Part shown: positions 23,102 to 60,038 of the stretch, in pieces
How positions within the stretch are numbered: the first letter of the stretch is position 1
Layout of the letters: every line of letters begins with the position of its first letter
Source of the DNA: Escherichia phage slur02
Sequence record: NC_028927.1
Strand: one strand, 5' to 3'
Length of the DNA stretch: 64,000 nucleotides
Notes under the pieces: model-generated
Told to the model about the DNA's origin: nothing
Databases searched by the model: none
The model's input: the letters and a program-made list of their open reading frames with translations, nothing else
Position numbers and translations under genes: made by a program

Positions 23102-23301
23102 TTTGAATGCTCTATAATTAATTTTAAGGCTTCTTCATGCAACCACTTACCTGGTATATGTCCAGTTTTAATTGTGTGAGCTTTGCGGAGCTGATTAGAT
23201 AAGAGCTCACATATGAGCTCTTTGTCATAATTTTTAAATAGCTGGTCAATACGTTTCTTGCGGGCTTTCTTAAGCTGACGTTTATTTAAACGAGCCATCA
23301 A
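23098..23301 (-). CDS. hypothetical basic protein (67 aa)
   Basis: Track ORF; ATGA coupling. Confidence 0.45.
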   Translation of the reverse strand: MMARLNKRQLKKARKKRIDQLFKNYDKELICELLSNQLRKAHTIKTGHIPGKWLHEEALKLIIEHSK

Positions 23302-23816
23302 TAACCTCGGTCTTGACGAGCAAAGTTTTCAGCATTTTTCAGATAATAAAGTTTAAAGATTTCTTCAGCCGTAAGACCGAGACCTTGGAACATGTTCAGA
23401 ACGAAATGAAGAATATCAATCATTTCGAATTTAATTTCCAACTGGTCTTGTGGAGACAAATCAGTAATTAGAGTTTCACGACGTTCACCATGCTGTGACT
23501 TCCAAGGTTTCCATACAGCAGATGCATCTTTTTCACCATTGCTCATACCGCCAAGAGAAGTCAGAAGTTCACGGAATTCATCATCAATGTAATCTTTCTG
23601 ATTACGCAGCCAATCAACAACTTCGCCTGCAGTAGCCAAATCATCAGGATGACGGTTATATTCAGGTTTATCTTTAGCTAAACGAATCTGCAGAGATTTC
23701 TGCATGTCAAGCATTACCTGCAGCGGGTCTTTTTCATCACCGAGAATATCCCAATATTCATTTTGAGCTTTATCAGCGCCTTCAATCAGTTGTGAACATT
23801 CATTAAAATATGCCAT
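23298..23816 (-). CDS. 56: gp56 dCTPase/dUTPase (MazG-like NTP pyrophosphatase)
   Basis: Track ORF trimmed to MAYFNEC... start with AAAGGAAAAATA SD; about 172 aa. Confidence 0.85.
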   Translation of the reverse strand: MAYFNECSQLIEGADKAQNEYWDILGDEKDPLQVMLDMQKSLQIRLAKDKPEYNRHPDDLATAGEVVDWLRNQKDYIDDEFRELLTSLGGMSNGEKDASAVWKPWKSQHGERRETLITDLSPQDQLEIKFEMIDILHFVLNMFQGLGLTAEEIFKLYYLKNAENFARQDRGY

Positions 23817-28556: not shown

Positions 28557-28919
28557 TTAAAAGAATTTAAATTTTTTCTTTGACCTTTTATTAAATGCAT
28601 CTTGCAGTTGCATTGTAATACATTTTTCTACATGAGGAGCTAACTCAGCTTTTCTTTCTTGGTCAAGAACAGCAAAGTCCATTACAACCTTTCCATCAAC
28701 CCAATCCAGTTTTGTTACATACACTATATGTGTAGAACCGTCTTCTAGTTTAATGACAATCTCCTGGATAACATTTTCCATGGCAGATTTAATTATCTTA
28801 AGAGATTCATTAAAAAGACGTTCTTTTCTTTCTTCTTCCCCCTCCGAAGAGGGGGATTCATCGATAATTTCTAGATCTAAATCTAAATCATCTTTATTCA
28901 TTAAATTCTTCCATATCAC
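28557..28919 (-). CDS. 40: gp40-like protein (120 aa)
   Basis: Position between 41 and uvsX; acidic N-terminus; start may be an internal ATG. Confidence 0.6.
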   Translation of the reverse strand: MIWKNLMNKDDLDLDLEIIDESPSSEGEEERKERLFNESLKIIKSAMENVIQEIVIKLEDGSTHIVYVTKLDWVDGKVVMDFAVLDQERKAELAPHVEKCITMQLQDAFNKRSKKKFKFF

Positions 28920-30075
28920 TTAACTGTTCGAGGTCAGTTTCTAAATCAGCAGCTGATTTACTTTTACTTTCTGGAGATTTAAATTTTTCAACCTTTGAGT
29001 TAATCAATTCATCAACTTCAGCTTCAACAATTTCATTACTATCAATAGCACCTAACTGATAAGCACGTTTAATAGCATCTCGGAATGGTTGATGCTTAAA
29101 TAAAGGACCCCAGAATGTAGTGCAGTTGGTATCTTTTGCACGCCAAGATTTTTCTTCGCGAATCATCTCGCCGGTTTCTTCATCAAGAAATTCGCGAGCA
29201 TACCAGCCATTTTTTGGTTTTACTACAAATCCTAATTCTAGAGCCATATCTAACAATCCAGAATAAGGATCGATACCACCGTCAAATTTAACATCAATAA
29301 AGAATTTACTTTTTTCTTTAACGGTACGAGATTTTTCTACATTTAGAACAAATTGATACCCCTGAAGATCAGAACCATCTTTAATCTGGCGTTTACCGAT
29401 AATGAATACGGTATCAGCCGAATACATTACGCCTGTACCACCTGTCATCACGGTTTTACTAAACATTTCAATTGTTTCAATTGTATGGTTAACCGCAACA
29501 CATGGAATATTTTTAATGCTAAAATAAGGAGTAACAATACGGAATAATGACTTCAGTGATTTAGCACGAGTCATATCTGCCACAGATTTTTCATTCAAGG
29601 CATCTTCCGTTTCTTTCTTAGAAGCCATATTACCGATTGAGTCGATGAATACAATAACCTTTTCACCACGCTCAATAGCTTCAAGCTGATTCACCATGTC
29701 AATTTTCAGTTGTTCAACTGACTGGATTGGTGTATGAATTACTCGTTCCGGGTCAACTCCCATGGATCGCAAATAAGCTGGAGTAATACCAAATTCGCTA
29801 TCATAGAATAGACAAACCGCGTCAGGATATTTGTTCAAATATGCCGCAACCATAGTCAAAGACATATTTGATTTAAAGTGTTTAGAAGGCCCTGCGAAAA
29901 TAGTTAAACCAGACTGCATACCGCCATCAATCGCACCAGAAATAGCGATATTAAGCATTGGGATTTTTGTACGGATTACATCCTTTTCATTAAAGAATTT
30001 AGATGTAGTCAGTTCAGCAGTCATTTTAGAAGTGGAAGCTTTAATCAAACGGGATTTTAAATCTGCAATAGACAT
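28894..30075 (-). CDS. uvsX: UvsX recombinase (RecA-like)
   Basis: 393 aa; Walker A GPSKHFKS. Confidence 0.9.
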   Translation of the reverse strand: MSIADLKSRLIKASTSKMTAELTTSKFFNEKDVIRTKIPMLNIAISGAIDGGMQSGLTIFAGPSKHFKSNMSLTMVAAYLNKYPDAVCLFYDSEFGITPAYLRSMGVDPERVIHTPIQSVEQLKIDMVNQLEAIERGEKVIVFIDSIGNMASKKETEDALNEKSVADMTRAKSLKSLFRIVTPYFSIKNIPCVAVNHTIETIEMFSKTVMTGGTGVMYSADTVFIIGKRQIKDGSDLQGYQFVLNVEKSRTVKEKSKFFIDVKFDGGIDPYSGLLDMALELGFVVKPKNGWYAREFLDEETGEMIREEKSWRAKDTNCTTFWGPLFKHQPFRDAIKRAYQLGAIDSNEIVEAEVDELINSKVEKFKSPESKSKSAADLETDLEQLSDMEEFNE

Positions 30076-30128
30076 TCATTTTTTCCATAGGCATCATTAT
30101 ATTTTCCTCACTGGTTAAAGATAGAGTA

Positions 30129-30154
30129 ATTATAACACAATAAATTTAGGCATT
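30129..30154 (-). promoter_or_regulatory. middle promoter candidate for uvsX
   Basis: ATGCCTAA box-like element about 11 nt upstream of TATAAT. Confidence 0.35.
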
Positions 30155-31001
30155 AATCAACTGCTATTGGATGAATAGCATTAAACTTATGAAATGCTTC
30201 TGATTTTTCTTTACGCGAAACACACATGCGAAGAACCTTTAGTGGTTCATCTTCTTCACCCAACGATTTTCGTTTTTCAATATTCGATGTTTTCCAACGA
30301 GCTTGCTCTGGAAACTCTCTATTGATTTGCTCAAGCGCTCTATTATGTTTAGAATTACTGCGAATTGAACTACATCCGCCAGGAGCTTGTGCTTTTCCAG
30401 ATACAACCAGATATTTGAACAAGGCCAAATGCGGATAACCTTGATTAATTAAATTGAGAAATGCATACATATCTTCGCATAAATCAATTTTTCCATACCC
30501 AATTTGTTCTGTCGTAAGTTTTCCGAGGTCATACCATGTATTCGTGAATCCATATGAATTTTCACGATAATTACCCCAAGATGAAGTAATTTTAAAAATA
30601 GGTAGACGAGCATGGCCATGATAATACCCGCAATCCATAGCATCCTCAACATATTGAATCAATTCATAGAACTGTTCACGAGTCAATTGATTAATTTTAT
30701 CTACACAACGACGATCATCTCTTTTTCGCATTGAACTCATACGAATAGTAGTATCATCGTCAATCATCCAAATTCGTTGACCTGCATACATATCAGTAAT
30801 TGCTTTACGAGTTCCAGCAATTCCATTTACATCATCAGGAATAGTTATAATTTTAGCTCTAGACCCATAGGCATCATAATAAGCTTTTTCTTCGTGTTCA
30901 CGTACTACAATATGTGGTTCATAATCAGTCGGAAACATATCAAGGGCAGAAACTGCCCCTACACGTTGATAGCTTGGAATTACGAATTGAATCATTTCCA
31001 C
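30153..31001 (-). CDS. putative GT-A-fold glycosyltransferase (candidate DNA glucosyltransferase)
   Basis: 282 aa; IPSYQR strand and IDDD (DxD) motif; occupies the beta-gt position between uvsX and 42. Confidence 0.5.
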   Translation of the reverse strand: MEMIQFVIPSYQRVGAVSALDMFPTDYEPHIVVREHEEKAYYDAYGSRAKIITIPDDVNGIAGTRKAITDMYAGQRIWMIDDDTTIRMSSMRKRDDRRCVDKINQLTREQFYELIQYVEDAMDCGYYHGHARLPIFKITSSWGNYRENSYGFTNTWYDLGKLTTEQIGYGKIDLCEDMYAFLNLINQGYPHLALFKYLVVSGKAQAPGGCSSIRSNSKHNRALEQINREFPEQARWKTSNIEKRKSLGEEDEPLKVLRMCVSRKEKSEAFHKFNAIHPIAVD

Positions 31002-31732
31002 TCACCGTTATAATCTTTTTTCACAATATGAGTTTCGCCAGTATTCCACCAATGATCAACCAAGTAAAAATGACGAGAATATACATGAAGACTTCCAACA
31101 TTCCATATAATAGAACCTGCTTTATACTGACGAGTTGAATCGCCTGCATTCAAATCAGATACTAATTTATCTAATACGTATTTTTGCCATGCATAATCAT
31201 TACGGAATCCGAAGACCACGTCATTTGAGCGCATGCTTACTACTGCATTGACTTTCTTATCACGAATCAGGTATTGTACTGTATTAGTACACATGAAATC
31301 TGACATGCCATCTTTATTGTAGTCAAATTGCATGGATGGACGAGTATAAATCATGATACCACGTCGAGAATCAGGGTTTTGACCAAGTTCAGCTAAACAC
31401 ATATCATACTGGGCATAGTTATCTTCTGACCAAATAGCCCAACCATAATTTGAGTTAATTTCACCTTTAGAAGATGCTACCTGCTGCCAAATCTTTGGTG
31501 TTTCACCTGGAATATCTTTAACAAACAAGCTTTTAGATTTATACCATTCAAGTTCACGCTGAATGTATTCATCATTAAGAGCGCCAAAAATAAACGGTTC
31601 ATCTGCTACAAATGATGCGCCAATAATTTCAATAGTTTTAACACCAGTTTTATCAACTACGAAATCTTTTTCTTTTAATGCAATCCCCAAATGAAGACGG
31701 ATTTCTTCAACTGTCATAGAGTCATTAATCAT
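30992..31732 (-). CDS. 42: gp42 dCMP hydroxymethylase
   Basis: 246 aa as in T4 gp42; thymidylate-synthase-like. Confidence 0.9.
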   Translation of the reverse strand: MINDSMTVEEIRLHLGIALKEKDFVVDKTGVKTIEIIGASFVADEPFIFGALNDEYIQRELEWYKSKSLFVKDIPGETPKIWQQVASSKGEINSNYGWAIWSEDNYAQYDMCLAELGQNPDSRRGIMIYTRPSMQFDYNKDGMSDFMCTNTVQYLIRDKKVNAVVSMRSNDVVFGFRNDYAWQKYVLDKLVSDLNAGDSTRQYKAGSIIWNVGSLHVYSRHFYLVDHWWNTGETHIVKKDYNGEWK

Positions 31733-31739
31733 TTAAACC

Positions 31740-31889
31740 TCAATTGATACATTCATATTTAACTTGTAACAGTAATAAGCTCCAACCTAAAATAATAGTT
31801 GGAATCATAAGAGGAACCGTTACACTATAGTATATACTTATTATAACCATCAAGATTAAAAGCAACACTGTTATAATTTTGCTTTTCAT
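31740..31889 (-). CDS. small membrane peptide (49 aa)
   Basis: Hand-translated MKSKIITVLLLILMVIISIYYSVTVPLMIPTIILGWSLLLLQVKYECIN; ATGA coupling to imm. Confidence 0.35.
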   Translation of the reverse strand: MKSKIITVLLLILMVIISIYYSVTVPLMIPTIILGWSLLLLQVKYECIN

Positions 31890-32137
31890 TCCTTCTCTCT
31901 GATGATAATTACCTGATTTAGTTGTGCAGACTTTTTAGTTTCACCCGCAATTGACCAAATAAATGTAATAAACCAACCAATAATTGACCAGTTAAACAGT
32001 AAAGATGTGAAAAAGATTCCTACTGTCGATTTTGACCCACGCATCAAGGCGATAAACCATGGAAGCATGTATATAATAATAGCCAACACACCTGAAACTA
32101 AAACCATAAAAATTGAACCTGCTACTAAAGTTTCCAT
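31886..32137 (-). CDS. imm: Imm, superinfection immunity membrane protein
   Basis: 83 aa, two hydrophobic helices, length as T4 Imm. Confidence 0.8.
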   Translation of the reverse strand: METLVAGSIFMVLVSGVLAIIIYMLPWFIALMRGSKSTVGIFFTSLLFNWSIIGWFITFIWSIAGETKKSAQLNQVIIIREKE

Positions 32138-32144
32138 GTTTTCC

Positions 32145-32525
32145 TCACTTAGTCAAATTTTTTACACATGAATTATAAGAATTCACTACATACTCCATCG
32201 GAGCATTTTTACCAGTACGCCATTGGTAATTATTAGCCCAATTAGCCCAAAGCTCGGCGCAGTAGTTTTCAATTTTTTCTTCGCGTGTAATTACATCCGA
32301 ATTACGATATGCTTGAGCAGATTCATCTGGACGAATAGCTTCGTCAAAATTCGCCTGCATTTGTTCTACTGTTTGCTTTGGAGCTTCTTTATAACACTTG
32401 ACATTAGGATTATAAAATTTGCTTGAACAGTTTACAATTTTTCCTACATCAGACTGATTTACTACCGGTCCTTGAGCTACACAACCAGTAAGACCTAATG
32501 CAATAACCAAAATAGCGATTTTCAT
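32145..32525 (-). CDS. lipoprotein (126 aa)
   Basis: Signal peptide with LTGC lipobox. Confidence 0.55.
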   Translation of the reverse strand: MKIAILVIALGLTGCVAQGPVVNQSDVGKIVNCSSKFYNPNVKCYKEAPKQTVEQMQANFDEAIRPDESAQAYRNSDVITREEKIENYCAELWANWANNYQWRTGKNAPMEYVVNSYNSCVKNLTK

Positions 32526-42365: not shown

Positions 42366-42381
42366 AGGGCCGAAGCCCTTT
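42364..42381 (-). terminator. terminator downstream of a-gt
   Basis: AAAGGGC-UUCG-GCCCUUU overlapping the a-gt stop codon. Confidence 0.55.
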
Positions 42382-43582
42382 ATTTTGTAATAATGTCAAA
42401 CTGTTCTTTAAAGCAGAAGCTTGAATCTTGATGCTGATACAAAAATTCATACGCTTTTTCTCGCTCACGGTCATAAAGAGCTCGGTCAGATGACAGTTCT
42501 TTAATACGTTCAAACGTTGATTCCATATCATTTTCATCAAACCAAACGATACCGCTATCATGCGAGGTCAAAGGAGTATTATCAACACGGAATTTTAAAT
42601 TTTCGCCAGTAGATTTCCAAAATACCGGAATTGTTCCACATGCACCAAGCTCGAGGTGAGTATATTCTAAAGAGCGCTGTAAATATTTTTTGTCCAACTT
42701 ACTCAACTGATAACCAAATCCGGATTTACTCATACGTTCAAGCATTTCGCTATTTACATAACGGTCAAGAATTTGCGTTGGCAAATTAGGAGCAATTTTA
42801 ATTTGGTCTACTTGATGAAGACGATAATACTCGTATGGAATTCCTTTTTCTTTAATAGGAATGAACGCTGGAGAACGTTCCAGACCTTCCATAATAGTAC
42901 TTAGTCCTGCAGGTTTAAGATGTTTTTCGTGAAAATCAAACATCTGATAAAAACCTTTCCATGTAGTCGTACGACCAATCCAGCGGTTGATATTCATATT
43001 AATTTCAGAAACATCTTTCCAGTAGGTTGACCGAACCTTCGCAATATCCATAGGAGGCTGAAAGTTATATACTGTCGGCGCTTCTTCAATATCATCAAAC
43101 AAAGAAACTGTTTCAGGATACCATTCTTTCATCAGAACTTTATTAAAATCACCATTATCAGAATGGCTAAAAATAACATCAGCTCGACGAACAGTTTCTT
43201 CTAATCCCAAATTTCGACGCAAAGAAAGAGAAGAATGGTCATGCTGATAAACTACAACACGAACAGAAGGTTTAATGTTATCAATAATTTTTTTATAGTT
43301 ATTAATAGTGTCTTCTTCAACCGAAGTAGCAGGAACTGAATTGATAATTAGAATATCACAATCATTTACCAGCTTAAGTGTTTTATCGTATTCTTTTGAC
43401 AATAAAACCGGAATTGAAAATGATTTATAATCATGTGCACAGTTACGAGTAAATGATTTATCTTTAGCATAAACCAAAGTTACTTCATGACCATTTTTAA
43501 TAAACCAATCACGTTGCTCAAGAGAAAATTTAGTTACACCACAACCTTCAAGACCTCGAGCCATAAAAATACATACTTTCAT
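42380..43582 (-). CDS. agt: alpha-glucosyltransferase
   Basis: 400 aa as in T4 a-gt; N-terminus CIFMARGLEGCGVTKFSLEQRDWF. Confidence 0.9.
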   Translation of the reverse strand: MKVCIFMARGLEGCGVTKFSLEQRDWFIKNGHEVTLVYAKDKSFTRNCAHDYKSFSIPVLLSKEYDKTLKLVNDCDILIINSVPATSVEEDTINNYKKIIDNIKPSVRVVVYQHDHSSLSLRRNLGLEETVRRADVIFSHSDNGDFNKVLMKEWYPETVSLFDDIEEAPTVYNFQPPMDIAKVRSTYWKDVSEINMNINRWIGRTTTWKGFYQMFDFHEKHLKPAGLSTIMEGLERSPAFIPIKEKGIPYEYYRLHQVDQIKIAPNLPTQILDRYVNSEMLERMSKSGFGYQLSKLDKKYLQRSLEYTHLELGACGTIPVFWKSTGENLKFRVDNTPLTSHDSGIVWFDENDMESTFERIKELSSDRALYDREREKAYEFLYQHQDSSFCFKEQFDIITK

Positions 43583-52215: not shown

Positions 52216-52519
52216 TTTCTTCTCGGTCAAATCGGTGTTTACAATGGCGGCATTTATAACGAAGATTACTAGTCTGCCAATGGACCAATTGCACCTGTTC
52301 AGTTCCACATTCAGGGCAATTAGGAACGTTTTTAGAAGCCCTTTCGCGACGTTTAACCATAGCCATAATGGCATCCCATGCTGGAGGTTTAAAATCTAAA
52401 TCGTCACAACCATGAATCTTTCCACGCATTTCCATATCATCTTCCTCACCAGCCATAATAATTTTAATTAAACTGGAATTACTTGAAGCTGCAATGTCTT
52501 CTAATAGACGCTTTTTCAT
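52202..52519 (-). CDS. zinc-finger protein (105 aa)
   Basis: CPECG...CRHCKH zinc ribbon. Confidence 0.5.
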
Positions 52520-53445
52520 TTCAATACCTCAATAGCATTACGTAAACCATTTGCTTTTGCATTAAGAGCTTTTAACAATTTGGTGTGTTCTGCAATTTGG
52601 GCTTCAACTTCAATCAAACGAGCATTGAGATATTCGCGTTCTTCACTCAGATTATCAACCTTTTCTACTTTAGGCTCTTTTACAACTGTCTTATATGTAT
52701 TAGGGTTCTTCAGTTTAATTAGAATGCGTGAACTGTATAACATTGAACCATTATCTTCGGTTTCGTCATACATTTCTACTACATCCATAATTTTTAACAT
52801 CATGCGGAGTTTATAAGACAACGAACGAATAGTTTTGTTGTGCTTATTAATTTCTTTAGCTGTCATGGTGCCGAGATTACGTGAGTAATAATAAGGAACC
52901 TGGATATTAATTAATACTGATGAACCACCTGGCTTGTGTGTTACTTCATCAGCAATAACCCAATCCTTAACATGAACTGTATTTGTACGGTCATCGCCCG
53001 CGGTAAATAGTTTGCGAGCATGCTTAAAAAGCATATTCACTTGGTCATTGAATTGACAAGCAAATTTATCAGCAAATTTAGTTTCAGGAATGGTAGATAA
53101 CCAATCAGCCAAATGGGTCTTTTTAACATCGTTAACAATAGTAAATTCAACCAAATCAGTTATAGATGTCTCAGATTTAATAAAGCTCGGCTTCATAAAG
53201 TTTTTAATGTTATCGCGAGCTACAGTAGAAGATAACATACGAGAACGTTTAAACCATTGAAGCAAATTGCCCAACGAATGAGAATAAGCGTTTTGAGTAT
53301 CTTTACAGATATGATTTTCCTGGCCAACATATTGAAGGAAATCACGAAGAATATTATTGATTACTGCTCTGTGTCCGATCTGATAATTACGGTGTTTAGT
53401 AATAAGACTGTCAAAATAATCAATATAATGTTTACGAGTTTTCAT
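52516..53445 (-). CDS. paralog family member A (309 aa) with C-terminal coiled coil
   Basis: Shares motif LFKHARKLFTAGD with next three ORFs; heptad C-terminus. Confidence 0.6.
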   Translation of the reverse strand: MKTRKHYIDYFDSLITKHRNYQIGHRAVINNILRDFLQYVGQENHICKDTQNAYSHSLGNLLQWFKRSRMLSSTVARDNIKNFMKPSFIKSETSITDLVEFTIVNDVKKTHLADWLSTIPETKFADKFACQFNDQVNMLFKHARKLFTAGDDRTNTVHVKDWVIADEVTHKPGGSSVLINIQVPYYYSRNLGTMTAKEINKHNKTIRSLSYKLRMMLKIMDVVEMYDETEDNGSMLYSSRILIKLKNPNTYKTVVKEPKVEKVDNLSEEREYLNARLIEVEAQIAEHTKLLKALNAKANGLRNAIEVLK

Positions 53446-53497
53446 ATTCTTCTCACTTGGTTAATGATTTATACTCCGAGCCATCCTTGGCTTTAAA

Positions 53498-54499
53498 TTA
53501 CTTAATTAACTGTAAAGCTTGTTCAAGACGATCAAGACGATTAACGGATTCTTCCCAAATCTTTTTAGCCTGCTCATATTCTTTCTGCGCTTTATTAGAA
53601 ATTTCTAGAACTTCTTTATAAGCTTTTTCTAGTGCAATAACTTCTGGACGAATTTCTACCGGTTCAGGAGAATCATCAAGATTATCCATTAGTTCCTCAA
53701 GGGTAGTTTCTTCTTTAGGAGTATTCACAATTTCATCACATTTTTGTTGGTAAATTTCTTTATCAGTCGGTGAGTACGCACACTTTACTTCACGAAGACT
53801 AACTACAATTTTATATCCTTCCCAACCGCATATATTCTTAAAAGGATATGTATGAATATTTTCTACTGTTTCCATACAAAGTAATGCGGTCTCTAATTGA
53901 CGAGTTATAGTGCTAGCAATTGAGAAAAATTTATTAATGTTCTTTTGGTTAGTTTCTGGTGTAAAAAATCCATAATTCACAAAAATAGCTACTTTATTTT
54001 TATCAAGTTCATATTCTTTTATGATAATCATATCAGAAGCCAAAGGATGAATTTGACGATAATCACCATAACATAATTTAGAAGCTGATTTTAGAATTTG
54101 CTTCTTAAAAAGTCTGAAATTACTAATCCAACGACGAGTAAAAATATTCTCAGGGTCTTCTTTATTATTAAGATGATAAGAATTAACATCACCGAACCAA
54201 TTATATCCTACTACATCTTTGGTTCGTTTAATTTCTTTCCCAAAATTACCAAGAATATCCCGATTAACCAAATATGAAAGAAGACGAGACTCTTTAAAGG
54301 TTTTCTTGATAACATCTTTATCTACACGGCTAGAAATTTTACGAATTTCATGAATAAATTTAGTAGAAGAAACAATACTTGCATCAACACTATTGAGCCA
54401 TTGATTGATAATAGAAAGAACGATATTTTGACCAAACATCGGTATAGCTTTATCATCAATAACGCTATTGAATGATTTGATATATTCGTTACGAGTCAT
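53498..54499 (-). CDS. paralog family member B (about 333 aa)
   Basis: Start moved to ATG after GAGGAG SD; motif QILKSASKLCYGD; C-terminal coiled coil. Confidence 0.6.
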   Translation of the reverse strand: MTRNEYIKSFNSVIDDKAIPMFGQNIVLSIINQWLNSVDASIVSSTKFIHEIRKISSRVDKDVIKKTFKESRLLSYLVNRDILGNFGKEIKRTKDVVGYNWFGDVNSYHLNNKEDPENIFTRRWISNFRLFKKQILKSASKLCYGDYRQIHPLASDMIIIKEYELDKNKVAIFVNYGFFTPETNQKNINKFFSIASTITRQLETALLCMETVENIHTYPFKNICGWEGYKIVVSLREVKCAYSPTDKEIYQQKCDEIVNTPKEETTLEELMDNLDDSPEPVEIRPEVIALEKAYKEVLEISNKAQKEYEQAKKIWEESVNRLDRLEQALQLIK

Positions 54500-54527
54500 A
54501 TTAATCTCCTCATTAGAAAGTAAGAAC

Positions 54528-54560
54528 ATTATACCACATCTTTGTGGCGAAGTAAACTAG
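54528..54560 (-). promoter_or_regulatory. early promoter upstream of paralog B
   Basis: GTTTAC, 17 nt, TATAAT; palindromic spacer CCACAAAGATGTGG. Confidence 0.55.
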
Positions 54561-55582
54561 TTTAGTGCATTTAGTGCATTGTTCAGTTTAGAACGTTGCT
54601 TTGTCAGATTTTGAACCCTTGACTGAGCTTGTTCTAACACCTTTTCAGCTTCTAGCACTTCATTGGTCGCTTTAACGAGTTCATCATCTACTGCCTTAAG
54701 AGACTTCTCAATCGCGTCAGCGTGCCATTTTTCTACAGGTTTAAGACTCGGATTTTCAACAGGAAGAAAATTCACTTTATTGAATTTCCATGCATCATTA
54801 TTACCTGAACTATACATCCAAAATTTAGAATCGTTTGATGAGTAATTGGATAAATTTAAATTTAAGTTATCTTGCACTTCTTGCTTTTTCTCTTGCGGGA
54901 CTTCGTCCTTTCTCAAAAAATCGTATTTAAATGAAACGATCATATCAAGTTCATATGTTGTCGTATCTAACTTAAATCGTTCAAAACGAGGTAAAATCTT
55001 AGATTGAACAGCAGCAACAACATCCATATACTTAAATGCTTCTGTCAACTGTGATTTAAGGCATTCACAAATTGAAAGAGAATTTTTTGTATTAGGTTTA
55101 AAGCTAATTCGTGCAGTTCTATTATTTTCTTTTAACGGTCTTACTTCCATCTGAAGAGTATAACCATCAAATTTCAGATTCTTTAAGTTAATATCAGAAC
55201 CTTTTAATCGACTAGCCGTAGACAAAATTTGCTTTAATTGTTTACGGAATAGAGCAATAAATCTCCATTCAAGACGATAATGATTTGGATTAAAAAATCC
55301 TGTTGATAAATCAACCTTACTCTGACCAACGCCTTGAACAAATAGAGGATTTTTATAATCAATAGTTTTACAGAAATCGGTGAGCTGCTCACGAGCAGTC
55401 ATTTGTGTAATATATCCCGCTTTACTAAAATGACGTAACCATTCACTGCTATTCATATATTTAAAGTGAATGGAACTATTAACTCTATCAGGGTCTAAAT
55501 TATTTTGGCACAAAAATGTCATAACATTACGGGTATAGCTAGCATTACGAACCATATCTTCAATTTGAGAACGAGTTTTCAT
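54557..55582 (-). CDS. paralog family member C (341 aa)
   Basis: Motif QILSTASRLKGSD; C-terminal coiled coil. Confidence 0.6.
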   Translation of the reverse strand: MKTRSQIEDMVRNASYTRNVMTFLCQNNLDPDRVNSSIHFKYMNSSEWLRHFSKAGYITQMTAREQLTDFCKTIDYKNPLFVQGVGQSKVDLSTGFFNPNHYRLEWRFIALFRKQLKQILSTASRLKGSDINLKNLKFDGYTLQMEVRPLKENNRTARISFKPNTKNSLSICECLKSQLTEAFKYMDVVAAVQSKILPRFERFKLDTTTYELDMIVSFKYDFLRKDEVPQEKKQEVQDNLNLNLSNYSSNDSKFWMYSSGNNDAWKFNKVNFLPVENPSLKPVEKWHADAIEKSLKAVDDELVKATNEVLEAEKVLEQAQSRVQNLTKQRSKLNNALNALN

Positions 55583-55590
55583 GGTGTTCC

Positions 55591-56478
55591 TTAAGATTTA
55601 AGTAAATCAACAATTTTAATTAATTTTTCACGCTCAGATTTAGCTTTACTACTCAGTCCAGATAGTCTGAAAATTTCATCGTCATATTGTTGAATAGAAA
55701 TATTCAGCTCTTCAATCTGCTTATTAAAATAATCAATTTGTTCAGAATGTTTTTCGTTACTACGAACTGGTACAGGTTTTGTAGGCAATTTAGTTGAACT
55801 GGATTCATCCGGGCGATAAATTAAAATACAACTTGAACCAATAGGGCATTTAGCACCAGATGAATATTCTAATGTTCCGGCTTCTTTTAAAACTTCAAAA
55901 GCTAAACAGAGATGATGCCCCATATTAACATAATCTGTAGAGTGAGCTCTGATATAATAATCATCGCCGCGAATACTAAATTTAAAGCATTTAAGGTCTT
56001 CTGTATTATTGGTCTTAAAAATCATTTGTTTATCTAGACCTTTAGCTAATCGAGCGCCTAATGCTAATAATCGTCGTTGATTTTCCCACAAATCCGTAAT
56101 CATTTGATCGAATGATAATTTAGGCATTAGTCGACCATAAAGGTCATATCCTTTATTATAATTGCGAAGGATTTCACTCGCATTAATACGAGACAACGCT
56201 CCAATTTTATTAAGGGCTTTCATGATGCGATCAGATAAACTCATTCCAGACCCGTTTGTTCGCTGTAAATGTTTATCTAATCCAAACCCAATATCAACTT
56301 TAAACTTATCTAAAATTTCTGCATGAACATCTCTGTCAATAACATTCAAATCCAAAGTTGGGTTAAATCTATGAAAAAATTTATCTGGCTCTCCACGACG
56401 AAGTACAGTCCATTCATTCAATTTTTTATTAACTAAAGATTTAATTACTGCATTGACATTATTAATTACTACTGACAT
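55591..56478 (-). CDS. paralog family member D (about 295 aa)
   Basis: Start moved to ATG after GAGGA SD; motif LLALGARLAKGLD; C-terminal coiled coil. Confidence 0.6.
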   Translation of the reverse strand: MSVVINNVNAVIKSLVNKKLNEWTVLRRGEPDKFFHRFNPTLDLNVIDRDVHAEILDKFKVDIGFGLDKHLQRTNGSGMSLSDRIMKALNKIGALSRINASEILRNYNKGYDLYGRLMPKLSFDQMITDLWENQRRLLALGARLAKGLDKQMIFKTNNTEDLKCFKFSIRGDDYYIRAHSTDYVNMGHHLCLAFEVLKEAGTLEYSSGAKCPIGSSCILIYRPDESSSTKLPTKPVPVRSNEKHSEQIDYFNKQIEELNISIQQYDDEIFRLSGLSSKAKSEREKLIKIVDLLKS

Positions 56479-56485
56479 ATTTTCC

Positions 56486-56893
56486 TCACTCAATTTCAAT
56501 TTTACTAAATACGCAGAATATGATGGAAAAGACTATATAAGCACCGCATACAGATTGAACTAATACCATTCCAAAGAACCAAACAATATTATCAAACAAT
56601 GTCTGTTTTACGTCGAAAGGACGTAAACTTACAGTAATATTATCGCCTTTTTCTATTGATGAATACATCTCTGGGGAAATATATTCACTAAATCTATAAC
56701 CGTCTTTGAGTTCATATACGGCAATAAACGATAAACTAGACCCCTTTCCTTGAGTTCCTGTAAGGGTATTAACTACAGTAACATCATAATCTTTATAATG
56801 CATATAATCATTAATTGCGTAATAACCATATGCAATTACTATACATAAACAACATATCAATAAATTCAATCTTTTAATTATCAACTGTTTCAT
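56486..56893 (-). CDS. membrane protein (135 aa)
   Basis: N- and C-terminal hydrophobic helices. Confidence 0.5.
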   Translation of the reverse strand: MKQLIIKRLNLLICCLCIVIAYGYYAINDYMHYKDYDVTVVNTLTGTQGKGSSLSFIAVYELKDGYRFSEYISPEMYSSIEKGDNITVSLRPFDVKQTLFDNIVWFFGMVLVQSVCGAYIVFSIIFCVFSKIEIE

Positions 56894-56948
56894 AATAATC
56901 TCAATTAAAAGGGCTTAGAACCATTATACCATCCTTGGTATAAAGCGG

Positions 56949-57476
56949 TTATGCGAGTACCGTCTTTAACCGTTCTTCAAACTTCCGAAGAGTATTCTGG
57001 CGTTCAGCTCTTTGCTTTTTGTAAGTTTCAATACGCTCTGAAATGAGAGTGTATCGTTCATTTACTGATTCTTTCATAAAATCAGGAATTTCACGAGAAG
57101 CTTTAATCTCGTCAAATTTATCAATAACAGCTTGCTCTTCAGCAATTAAGTTATCATACATCAAAATATCTTTCTTGATGAACTCAATATCTTCTTGAGT
57201 TACACGAGATAATTTAGATGCTTTATCCTTTTTGTACTGTTCGTTAGTATCACGAGACCAGTGTAATGTACGATTTTTATTCGTATTTTTGTAAATTTCT
57301 ACAATACCAATCTCATCAATAATAACGATCCAATTCCAACGAGATTTGTAAATTTGCCCTCCATCAACTGTGATTTCACCTCCGATTGAGATGTCATTAA
57401 AGAACTTGCTTTGTGCTTCTGATTTAAATTTACCATCATTGTAATTTACCAGGTTGAAAATATCTTTAGCGTTCAT
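56949..57476 (-). CDS. hypothetical protein (175 aa)
   Basis: Track ORF; early promoter module upstream. Confidence 0.5.
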   Translation of the reverse strand: MNAKDIFNLVNYNDGKFKSEAQSKFFNDISIGGEITVDGGQIYKSRWNWIVIIDEIGIVEIYKNTNKNRTLHWSRDTNEQYKKDKASKLSRVTQEDIEFIKKDILMYDNLIAEEQAVIDKFDEIKASREIPDFMKESVNERYTLISERIETYKKQRAERQNTLRKFEERLKTVLA

Positions 57477-57504
57477 TTTCTGTTCCTCCGTAGTTGATAG
57501 TTGT

Positions 57505-57538
57505 ATAGTACCACAGAGGAACAGTCTTGTAAACCACT
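57505..57538 (-). promoter_or_regulatory. early promoter with conserved leader
   Basis: Conserved module GTTTAC...TACTATACAACTATCAACTAC. Confidence 0.55.
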
Positions 57539-57851
57539 AAAAGAAACTTCTTTCACAATTTTTTCCACTGAACCACGCGCTCACTGCTTTCTTAGTCTCA
57601 GGAGCAGTGTTATCCATAAACCATTCAAAGGCAGCCTTTTTATGATTCTGGAGGGCTTCTCGGGCTTTAATCTGCTCACGGTCTATTAACACTAACATAT
57701 GAGCCTTTCTTGTCACCAAGGGCTTCTTATGATTTTTTGAATACTCCCAGTCATTTGTCCATCGCATTGTCGTTGCGAATTGAAATACAGCTTCTTTAAT
57801 TTTAGTTTCGTAAATTTCACGAGCCTTTGAGTATAACATCATTACCTCCAT
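57537..57851 (-). CDS. hypothetical protein (104 aa)
   Basis: Track ORF. Confidence 0.45.
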   Translation of the reverse strand: MEVMMLYSKAREIYETKIKEAVFQFATTMRWTNDWEYSKNHKKPLVTRKAHMLVLIDREQIKAREALQNHKKAAFEWFMDNTAPETKKAVSAWFSGKNCERSFF

Positions 57852-57940
57852 TTACCAGTTTAATTCTAGTCATCTTTTTGATGGCAGTCCATATAATCTA
57901 TTTCTGAACTGCCTTTTTATCTTAGAAGTCCTCTTATGAA

Positions 57941-58909
57941 TTATTTCAGAAGAGTAACCTCAGCAATTTCTTCCCAACCGTTTTTGTCGGTCATAATAAA
58001 GTCAGCAAGATAAAGAGCAGTACGCAGTGAAACATTGCGTAAACGATTAACATTGACTTTCATCCATGATAATGCTTTATAAGTTTCTTCATCAGAAAGA
58101 CCGCGCTTTTGCATCATGTCGGTTGAAAGAATAACATCTTCAACCCTGACCATAATTTCTTCATTAGTGTGAACACCCAAATCCAAATAAACTGAGCGGG
58201 ACACTAATGCTTGTAAATGTGGAGCAAGTTTAGTACCACGGTCTAATTCGCGGTCAATGTCAACGTTTGTGATAAAAACAATCGTTCCTTTAAATTCAAA
58301 CTCACGCTCAATGCCTTTTTCTTCTAAGTAAGAAGATGCAGTGCTCCAGCAGACTTTACGGGTCTCTCCAGTGTCCAGAGCAGCTTTCAGAAGATTAAGA
58401 ATGTCCATATCAGAGAAAACATCCACATCATCAATCAAAAGGACAGAATTCTCTTCACGATTATTCCAAAGCTGTTCATAAAGACCGATACCGGAGATTT
58501 TACCGTTAATGCTTTTATATTCAATGTATCCAATATCATTTGCTTTATTTAAAGCTTTATCTAAAGAATACGTTTTACCAATACCTGCCGCACCAGAGAT
58601 AATTAATGAACGAATGTTTCCGTTAATAATACCATTCGTCATCATTCCCATAACATTAAATCTTTTATTAATGCGGGTTTTCATATCTTCATACGATTCT
58701 TTAACTTCTTCAACTTTTACACCATCATATGAAATGTCTGATTTGTAAACCCAAACACCGCGACGTTTACCGTCAATTTCAACAAAAACTTTACCATCTC
58801 CTTGCGCATCTACCGGAGCATTATCTGGGAACCATTCGCCTAAGAGCTCAAAAGTTCCAGAGATTTCTTTACCGAAGTAGATACCCTTATTGATAGTTAC
58901 AGTTTTCAT
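57941..58909 (-). CDS. predicted AAA+-like P-loop ATPase (about 322 aa)
   Basis: Walker A GAAGIGKT, Walker B LLIDDVD, sensor-1-like FITN; start set to ATG after TGGAGAATAAA; own early promoter. Confidence 0.6.
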   Translation of the reverse strand: MKTVTINKGIYFGKEISGTFELLGEWFPDNAPVDAQGDGKVFVEIDGKRRGVWVYKSDISYDGVKVEEVKESYEDMKTRINKRFNVMGMMTNGIINGNIRSLIISGAAGIGKTYSLDKALNKANDIGYIEYKSINGKISGIGLYEQLWNNREENSVLLIDDVDVFSDMDILNLLKAALDTGETRKVCWSTASSYLEEKGIEREFEFKGTIVFITNVDIDRELDRGTKLAPHLQALVSRSVYLDLGVHTNEEIMVRVEDVILSTDMMQKRGLSDEETYKALSWMKVNVNRLRNVSLRTALYLADFIMTDKNGWEEIAEVTLLK

Positions 58910-58943
58910 TTTATTCTCCAAATCCGTATCAGTTGATAGTTGT

Positions 58944-58976
58944 ATAGTACCATAAAGCTTTATGCTTGTAAACAAC
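58944..58976 (-). promoter_or_regulatory. early promoter upstream of AAA+-like gene
   Basis: Conserved module followed by TTGGAGAATAAAATG. Confidence 0.55.
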
Positions 58977-59003
58977 TTTGTGAAAAATTTTTGAAATAAA
59001 AAA

Positions 59004-59021
59004 AGGGAGCCCGAAGGCTCC
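59004..59021 (-). terminator. terminator downstream of nucleotidyltransferase gene
   Basis: GGGAGCC-UUCG-GGCUCCC then UUUUUUUAUUU. Confidence 0.75.
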
Positions 59022-59024
59022 CTA

Positions 59025-60038
59025 TCATTTATAATAACTTCGGTGGTTTTCAAGATAAACCTGTTCGAGGAAATTATTCCAAAAGCTCATATCTACTGTT
59101 TTAGGCATACCATTCTTAGAAGCTTCAGTAGATGCTGCTTCTACTTGATCGACCACATCTTCCAAAAACTCTTGAACCGTTTTAAATGGATGTTTACCCA
59201 ACTTCACGTCGAGAATAAATGGAGCGTCTTGAAGTGGATAAACCAAGTCACCAGTTTTGTAAATTTCCAATAGTTGAAGTCCACCACGACAAGCATGGCT
59301 CAGAGCTTTCCAGTCAATGCCTTCATTGGCTTCGGCCTTTCGAGCGCGTTCACCATATTCAGCATCTAATTTGTTCAGTGACTGCTTAAGCTCAATAAGA
59401 GAAAGCGTTGTCTGATATTTACGACCCAACACTGTGTAAAACGTCTGTGGGCCTGTTTTCTCATGATTATGGAACACCCATTCACAGAATTCGTTTTCTG
59501 GAAGACGATGCTTAATATCTTCAACTTTAGTACGACGCTGCTTAATGGAACCGTCTTCTTGGTAATCAACCCATTGCTCAGGGATTTGATTAACTACTTT
59601 CAATACATCACGTAATGCAGCCAAACGAGAACCCTTGACACCGTATTTAGAAGCTTGCTTGCGGACATATCCTAAATAGGATTTCATGTTAGTCGTATAA
59701 AAACGAGAACGGTTGTCTTGAATAAACTTCCACACATCAGGCAAATCTGATTTAACTACTAGCTCAGGTGGAGTGTGAAGCATATCCAATGCTACGGTTT
59801 CACCATCTGCTGCTAATTTAAAGAAATATTTAAGACTGTATAGTTCATGGTCAATATCATCTTTAGTGTTTTTAGATGATGTATTGTTAGTATTTTTACT
59901 CATATGCTCTTTAACATTTCCGATAAGAATATCGCGAGCAGGAGGAACAAAGATTTCTTTAAAATCTACATCAGATTCTGGGGTAGAAGTTCCATAAAGA
60001 TGACTACCAAAATAGCTTTTCATTACTGTTTTCATCAT
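59025..60038 (-). CDS. predicted Pol-beta-superfamily nucleotidyltransferase (337 aa)
   Basis: N-terminal FGSHLYGTSTPESDVDF ([GS]-x10-DxD) with third acidic residue about 60 aa later (VALDMLH); ATGA-coupled to upstream membrane protein gene; strong terminator downstream. Confidence 0.55.
   Translation of the reverse strand: MMKTVMKSYFGSHLYGTSTPESDVDFKEIFVPPARDILIGNVKEHMSKNTNNTSSKNTKDDIDHELYSLKYFFKLAADGETVALDMLHTPPELVVKSDLPDVWKFIQDNRSRFYTTNMKSYLGYVRKQASKYGVKGSRLAALRDVLKVVNQIPEQWVDYQEDGSIKQRRTKVEDIKHRLPENEFCEWVFHNHEKTGPQTFYTVLGRKYQTTLSLIELKQSLNKLDAEYGERARKAEANEGIDWKALSHACRGGLQLLEIYKTGDLVYPLQDAPFILDVKLGKHPFKTVQEFLEDVVDQVEAASTEASKNGMPKTVDMSFWNNFLEQVYLENHRSYYK

Follow-up and report, generated by a model that had tools for sequence, protein, structure and literature searches.

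A ba-gt orthologue of the T2/T6 type in the uvsX-gene 42 interval of a Tequatrovirus genome

The interval between uvsX and gene 42

The stretch of phage DNA analyzed here (the window, 64,000 nucleotides in all) is 100% identical by megablast to Escherichia phages slur04, slur11 and slur13 of the genus Tequatrovirus, and a position in the RefSeq record of slur04 (NC_042130) becomes a window position by the addition of 21487. The genes described below all lie on the minus strand. The recombinase gene uvsX (28894..30075) forms the downstream flank of the glucosyltransferase slot, and gene 42 (30992..31732) lies on the other side. Between them, in the place where T4 carries b-gt, the original prediction had put a 282-aa protein; the ORF is indeed there, and spans 30153..31001 if begun at the GTG at 31001. 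The gap that separates it from uvsX (30076..30152) is just 77 bp long and is without the segA homing endonuclease gene, which in T4 lies between uvsX and b-gt; the T4 interval between uvsX and gene 42 thus contains both segA and b-gt.

The in-frame GTG at 31001 adds two residues to the protein that begins at the ATG at 30995. Two reasons led us to set the GTG aside in favour of the ATG: an ATGA overlap couples the latter to gene 42 (the last two bases of the ATG, together with the next A, are the TGA stop of gene 42), and the annotated orthologues all begin with MIQF. The ATG at 30995 is also the start chosen in RefSeq and in the T2 and T6 annotations, and is likely the true start, a six-base correction that trims the protein to 280 aa. 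The gene, ba-gt (for beta-glucosyl-HMC-alpha-glucosyltransferase; also called g-gt or TAGT), then occupies 30153..30995 and corresponds to RefSeq CDS YP_009625265.1; the RefSeq record of slur04 already gives this CDS the name beta-glucosyl-HMC-alpha-glucosyltransferase. The overlap of the start and stop codons suggests that ba-gt and gene 42 are co-transcribed and translationally coupled. The gene order uvsX - ba-gt - gene 42 is the same in the window, T2 and T6. A scan for promoters and terminators across 29900..32200 returned counts at the level of chance (14 versus 11.2±4.0 and 2 versus 1.2±1.3).

Gene 42 is intact, and its product matches the T4 dCMP hydroxymethylase structures 1B49 and 1B5E with E=9.3e-165. 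The RefSeq name of the gene, 'thymidylate synthase' (thyA1), is a misnomer, and the NCBIfam thymidylate synthase models all score far under their cutoffs on this protein. Between gene 42 and imm, and overlapping the stop of imm, lies a 49-aa, strongly hydrophobic ORF (31740..31889, minus strand; MKSKIITVLLLILMVIISIYYSVTVPLMIPTIILGWSLLLLQVKYECIN), which is without annotation in the RefSeq records of slur04 and T4 and is annotated as 'Phage protein' in phages EH2, TB37 and Solly. Counted from the translations, 45 of its 49 residues are identical in T4, and it is likely to encode a real small membrane protein beside the superinfection-immunity gene.

Two further genes of the window bear on cytosine modification. 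The a-gt gene, for DNA alpha-glucosyltransferase, is a 400-aa ORF at 42380..43582 that matches T4 AGT (1XV5) over its full length with E=2.3e-257, so that the intact a-gt originally proposed for these coordinates is indeed present; RefSeq calls the product 'alpha-glucosyltransferase'. A probable gp56 dCTPase/dUTPase is encoded at 23298..23816 (NC_042130 1811..2329), by annotation alone, under the RefSeq name 'nucleoside triphosphate pyrophosphohydrolase', and would probably keep dCTP out of the nucleotide pool. Farther away, beyond nrdC, the minus strand carries a run of CDSs of ~0.3-1 kb (52516..60035; NC_042130 31029..38548) that are mostly labelled 'hypothetical protein', the last being labelled 'nucleotidyltransferase'.

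Family membership and predicted fold

The ORF in the slot is not a chance one, as judged from its match to PHROG 842 (E=2.4e-89) and from the 473 phage records in which the gene is found with a nucleotide identity of at least 90%; a protein-level comparison gives 687 records. Among known systems the nearest is the enzyme of T2 and T6 (glucosyl-DNA beta-glucosyltransferase, which we take to be EC 2.4.1.28), the genes for which were reportedly cloned by Winkler and Rueger in 1993. The window protein is 98-99% identical to these enzymes over its full length (277/280 residues for T2 and 275/280 for T6), differs from them by point changes only, and shares with them its length, its position between uvsX and gene 42 and its partner a-gt. 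It is closer still to the enzymes of the Durham-collection phages EH2, TB37 and Solly (279/280), the sole change being I101V, with isoleucine in the window and valine in the other enzymes compared. Judged by sequence, gene order, partner genes, Pfam assignment and fold (see below), the gene belongs with the ba-gt orthologues of T2 and T6.

At a greater distance the protein belongs to Pfam family PF20691 (TET-associated glycosyltransferase, TAGT), with a score of 38.2 bits against a gathering threshold of 27.5 and a match that covers model positions 2-205 of 205. A word-indexed search for homologues gave 11 matches, while an exhaustive profile search at E<=1e-3 showed how large the family is, with 2,167 cluster representatives. 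Across an alignment of 116 diverse relatives, R11, D80, D175, G186 and G207 are invariant, and I6, P7, R63, D79, D81, L180, G206 and R212 are conserved in at least 90% of the sequences; the window ORF is intact and keeps every family-invariant residue. The two motifs that had first marked the protein as a glycosyltransferase lie in this conserved framework, IPSYQR being residues 6-11 and IDDD residues 78-81 of the 280-aa protein. The window differs from the general TAGT picture in two respects: the protein continues for ~70 C-terminal residues beyond the Pfam model, and it has no TET/JBP dioxygenase partner, hmC here coming from gp42 at the nucleotide level. A term search of the TET-phage paper PMC8256090 found no TAGT terms. 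Among the NCBIfam models none matches either ba-gt or a-gt, and a Pfam RNA_binding match at ba-gt residues 218-273 (E=0.28) was rejected because it falls far short of the cutoff.

The T2 and T6 sequences themselves show some peculiarities. The T2 enzyme has histidine at position 11, where arginine is invariant in the 116 TAGT members, and also carries P251S; the window has R11 and P251. The R11H change occurs in all eight T2/SV76 records and is present neither in the close relative AdolfPortmann nor in the window. The gentiobiosyl share of hmC is 5% in T2 and 72% in T6 (PMC11078745, PMC6024577, PMC13160076), and it is plausible from the sequence comparison that R11H could explain this difference. 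In one T6 record (AP018814/NC_054907) the gene is 840 bp long and one Asp of the DDD motif is missing, whereas the window has the full DDD. Since an independent T6 record, MH550421, gives an alignment of 843 bp, this loss belongs to a single stock or assembly and is no hallmark of T6.

A search of PDB sequences with ba-gt gave noise only (E>1), there being no TAGT structure in that set, and the fold was therefore assessed by structure prediction. An AlphaFold2 model built with the 116-sequence alignment has a mean pLDDT of 95.2 and a pTM of 0.92, and consists of a single Rossmann-like alpha/beta/alpha GT-A domain. Foldseek comparison of the model with the PDB returned 188 matches at E<=1e-3, and the best of these are all GT2-type GT-A enzymes, namely WrtF, AvpGT, the chondroitin polymerase K4CP, TarS and TarP, each with a probability of 1.00 and a TM-score of ~0.5. 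These results bear out the earlier proposal of a GT-A-type glycosyltransferase, and ba-gt is confidently predicted from the model to have a GT2-like GT-A fold. The same had been published for the T6 TAGT in 2026, where the enzyme is placed in GT-A as a sister to GT2 (PMC13216743).

The likeness to GT2-type enzymes (S. aureus TarS and TarP, E. coli K4CP, AvpGT and WrtF) extends to motifs, since the PxYxR strand at the N terminus, the DDD that follows beta-4 and the ED motif all align; in the AlphaFold2 model, D79-D80-D81 comes right after the strand formed by residues 74-78. A profile search of the PDB with the 116 sequences found AvpGT alone, at a marginal E=0.08. This alignment was used for motif correspondence alone, since it agrees with the Foldseek result, in which AvpGT ranks second. 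On AvpGT, the family IPsYxR corresponds to VIIPTYNR and DDD to DDDD, while the ED motif corresponds more weakly to EED. From this conservation and the fold matches, we infer that DDD 79-81 would hold the metal and the nucleotide-sugar (UDP-glucose), and that D175, the invariant residue in the ED motif, would act as the catalytic base. The mechanism is presumably inverting, given D175 and a product known to be beta-linked: a step from UDP-alpha-glucose to a beta linkage would fit the chemistry of the GT2 enzymes. What sets ba-gt apart from these enzymes is a sequence identity of only 10-15%, together with the acceptor: theirs is a polysaccharide, a teichoic acid or a lipid-linked glycan, whereas that of ba-gt is a sugar attached to duplex DNA.

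The occupant of the same slot in T4 is a very different protein. BLASTP comparison of ba-gt with T4 b-gt gave nothing beyond fragments at E>3, the best being E=3.4 over 8 residues, in agreement with the claim that the two are unrelated; moreover, on the evidence of the ORFs at this locus and of the same comparison, there is no b-gt in the uvsX-gene 42 slot. T4 b-gt shares with ba-gt its genomic slot, its UDP-glucose donor and the beta configuration of the bond made on modified phage DNA, but it is a GT-B enzyme (PMC13216743) rather than a GT-A one, and its acceptor is bare 5hmC rather than alpha-glucosyl-hmC. In GT-encoding phages the usual state is a-gt or b-gt together with a TAGT, and the T4 pair of a-gt and b-gt occurs in only 6 of 753 (PMC13216743). 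By this count a b-gt slot filled by ba-gt is normal, and T4 is the exceptional case.

The DNA modification expected in slur04

Taken together, these results make it very probable that the gene encodes a glucosyl-DNA beta-glucosyltransferase of the T2/T6 type, working after a-gt to give alpha-gentiobiosyl-hmC. In the proposed pathway, gp42 would make hm-dCMP, such that hmC replaces C in the DNA, and a-gt would then move glucose from UDP-glucose onto most of the hmC in an alpha linkage. The ba-gt enzyme, presumably an inverting, metal-dependent transferase of the GT-A fold and GT2-like, would add a second glucose from UDP-glucose to the alpha-glucose in a beta-1,6 linkage, and the end product would be alpha-gentiobiosyl-hmC.

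The composition of slur04 virion DNA can be predicted by analogy. The DNA of phages EH2, TB37, Solly and CP, analyzed by HPLC/MS, consists with respect to these bases of ~1/3 5-hmdC and ~2/3 alpha-5-gentiobiosyl-mdC; alpha-glucosyl-mdC is present as a trace, and the beta-glucosyl form is absent (PMC13390438). Since the window ba-gt differs by one conservative residue from the EH2, TB37 and Solly enzymes, slur04 DNA is predicted to be T6-like, with ~1/3 bare 5hmC, the rest mostly gentiobiosyl-hmC, and no beta-glucosyl-hmC. This near-identity to enzymes of phages in which gentiobiosyl-hmC has been seen by LC-MS (PMC13390438) also supports the original suggestion that a-gt and a second transferase together make a disaccharide of the T2/T6 type. 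The presence of the genes does not by itself fix the ratio of mono- to disaccharide, however, because T2 reaches 5% with a 99% identical enzyme and because phages EL, BGP and Geo, with the same gene pair, have hmC, glucosyl and gentiobiosyl forms at ~1:2:2 (PMC13390438), as opposed to the ~1/3 and ~2/3 of the EH2 group. That the modification pattern of slur04 should differ from those of T2 and T6 alike, for instance in its mono/di ratio or through an additional acceptor specificity, is very unlikely.

Perhaps the gene is a true ba-gt orthologue whose product is weak, as in T2, and slur04 DNA carries mostly mono-alpha-glucosyl-hmC with a few percent of the disaccharide. The T2 enzyme does share 277/280 residues with that of the window and yet leaves T2 DNA with ~5% gentiobiosyl-hmC, and some Tequatroviruses with both a-gt and ba-gt show intermediate ratios. 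We nevertheless consider a T2-like outcome unlikely, considering that T2 has R11H at a position invariant in 116 members while the window keeps R11 and P251, and that only I101V separates the window enzyme from those of phages with ~2/3 gentiobiosyl-hmC. A broader question is whether membership in TAGT implies this particular reaction at all. The family is diverse and, with 2,167 representatives (see above), large, and a TAGT is present in many phages that lack both a-gt and b-gt, implying other specificities (PMC13216743), so that a transferase acting directly on 5hmC, or transferring a sugar other than glucose, might be imagined here. With 98-99.6% identity to the genetically and chemically defined enzymes of T6 and the Durham phages, and with an intact a-gt in the same genome, it is difficult to see how either specificity could apply, and we regard both as highly improbable.

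The remaining alternative is that the protein is not a functional glycosyltransferase, having either a non-GT fold or a decaying gene. One could point to the lack of any direct sequence match to a solved structure, but the confident GT-A model and its fold matches, the intact ORF with all invariant residues kept, and the occurrence of the gene in 473 phage genomes together leave it with next to no credibility, and we treat it as effectively refuted. The preferred reading is therefore still that of a T2/T6-type enzyme that would convert alpha-glucosyl-hmC to gentiobiosyl-hmC.

Implications for T-even phages

Addition of a second glucose to phage DNA has been textbook T-even biology from 1962 onwards. 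The ba-gt of the window is likewise already known, being annotated in RefSeq slur04, with the enzyme class, product, genetics and predicted fold all published, and the combination of a-gt with a TAGT is a common, indeed the majority, arrangement in Tequatrovirus.

Studies in related phages indicate what the second glucose does for the DNA that carries it. When T6 is deprived of ba-gt, only alpha-glucosyl-hmC is left and sensitivity to the Brig1 glycosylase goes up (PMC11078745), and the BapA glucosidase cannot process gentiobiosyl-hmC (PMC13160076). The GmrSD and BrxU enzymes still target gentiobiosyl-hmC DNA (PMC13390438, PMC13216743). Phage slur04 is accordingly predicted to be relatively resistant to Brig1 (in vitro) and BapA, both of them specific for alpha-glucosyl-hmC, and sensitive to enzymes of the GmrSD/BrxU type. 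The finding adds no new biology; its use lies in correct annotation and in the prediction of phenotype, and in this way it bears on predictions of phage host range and on those made for phage therapy.
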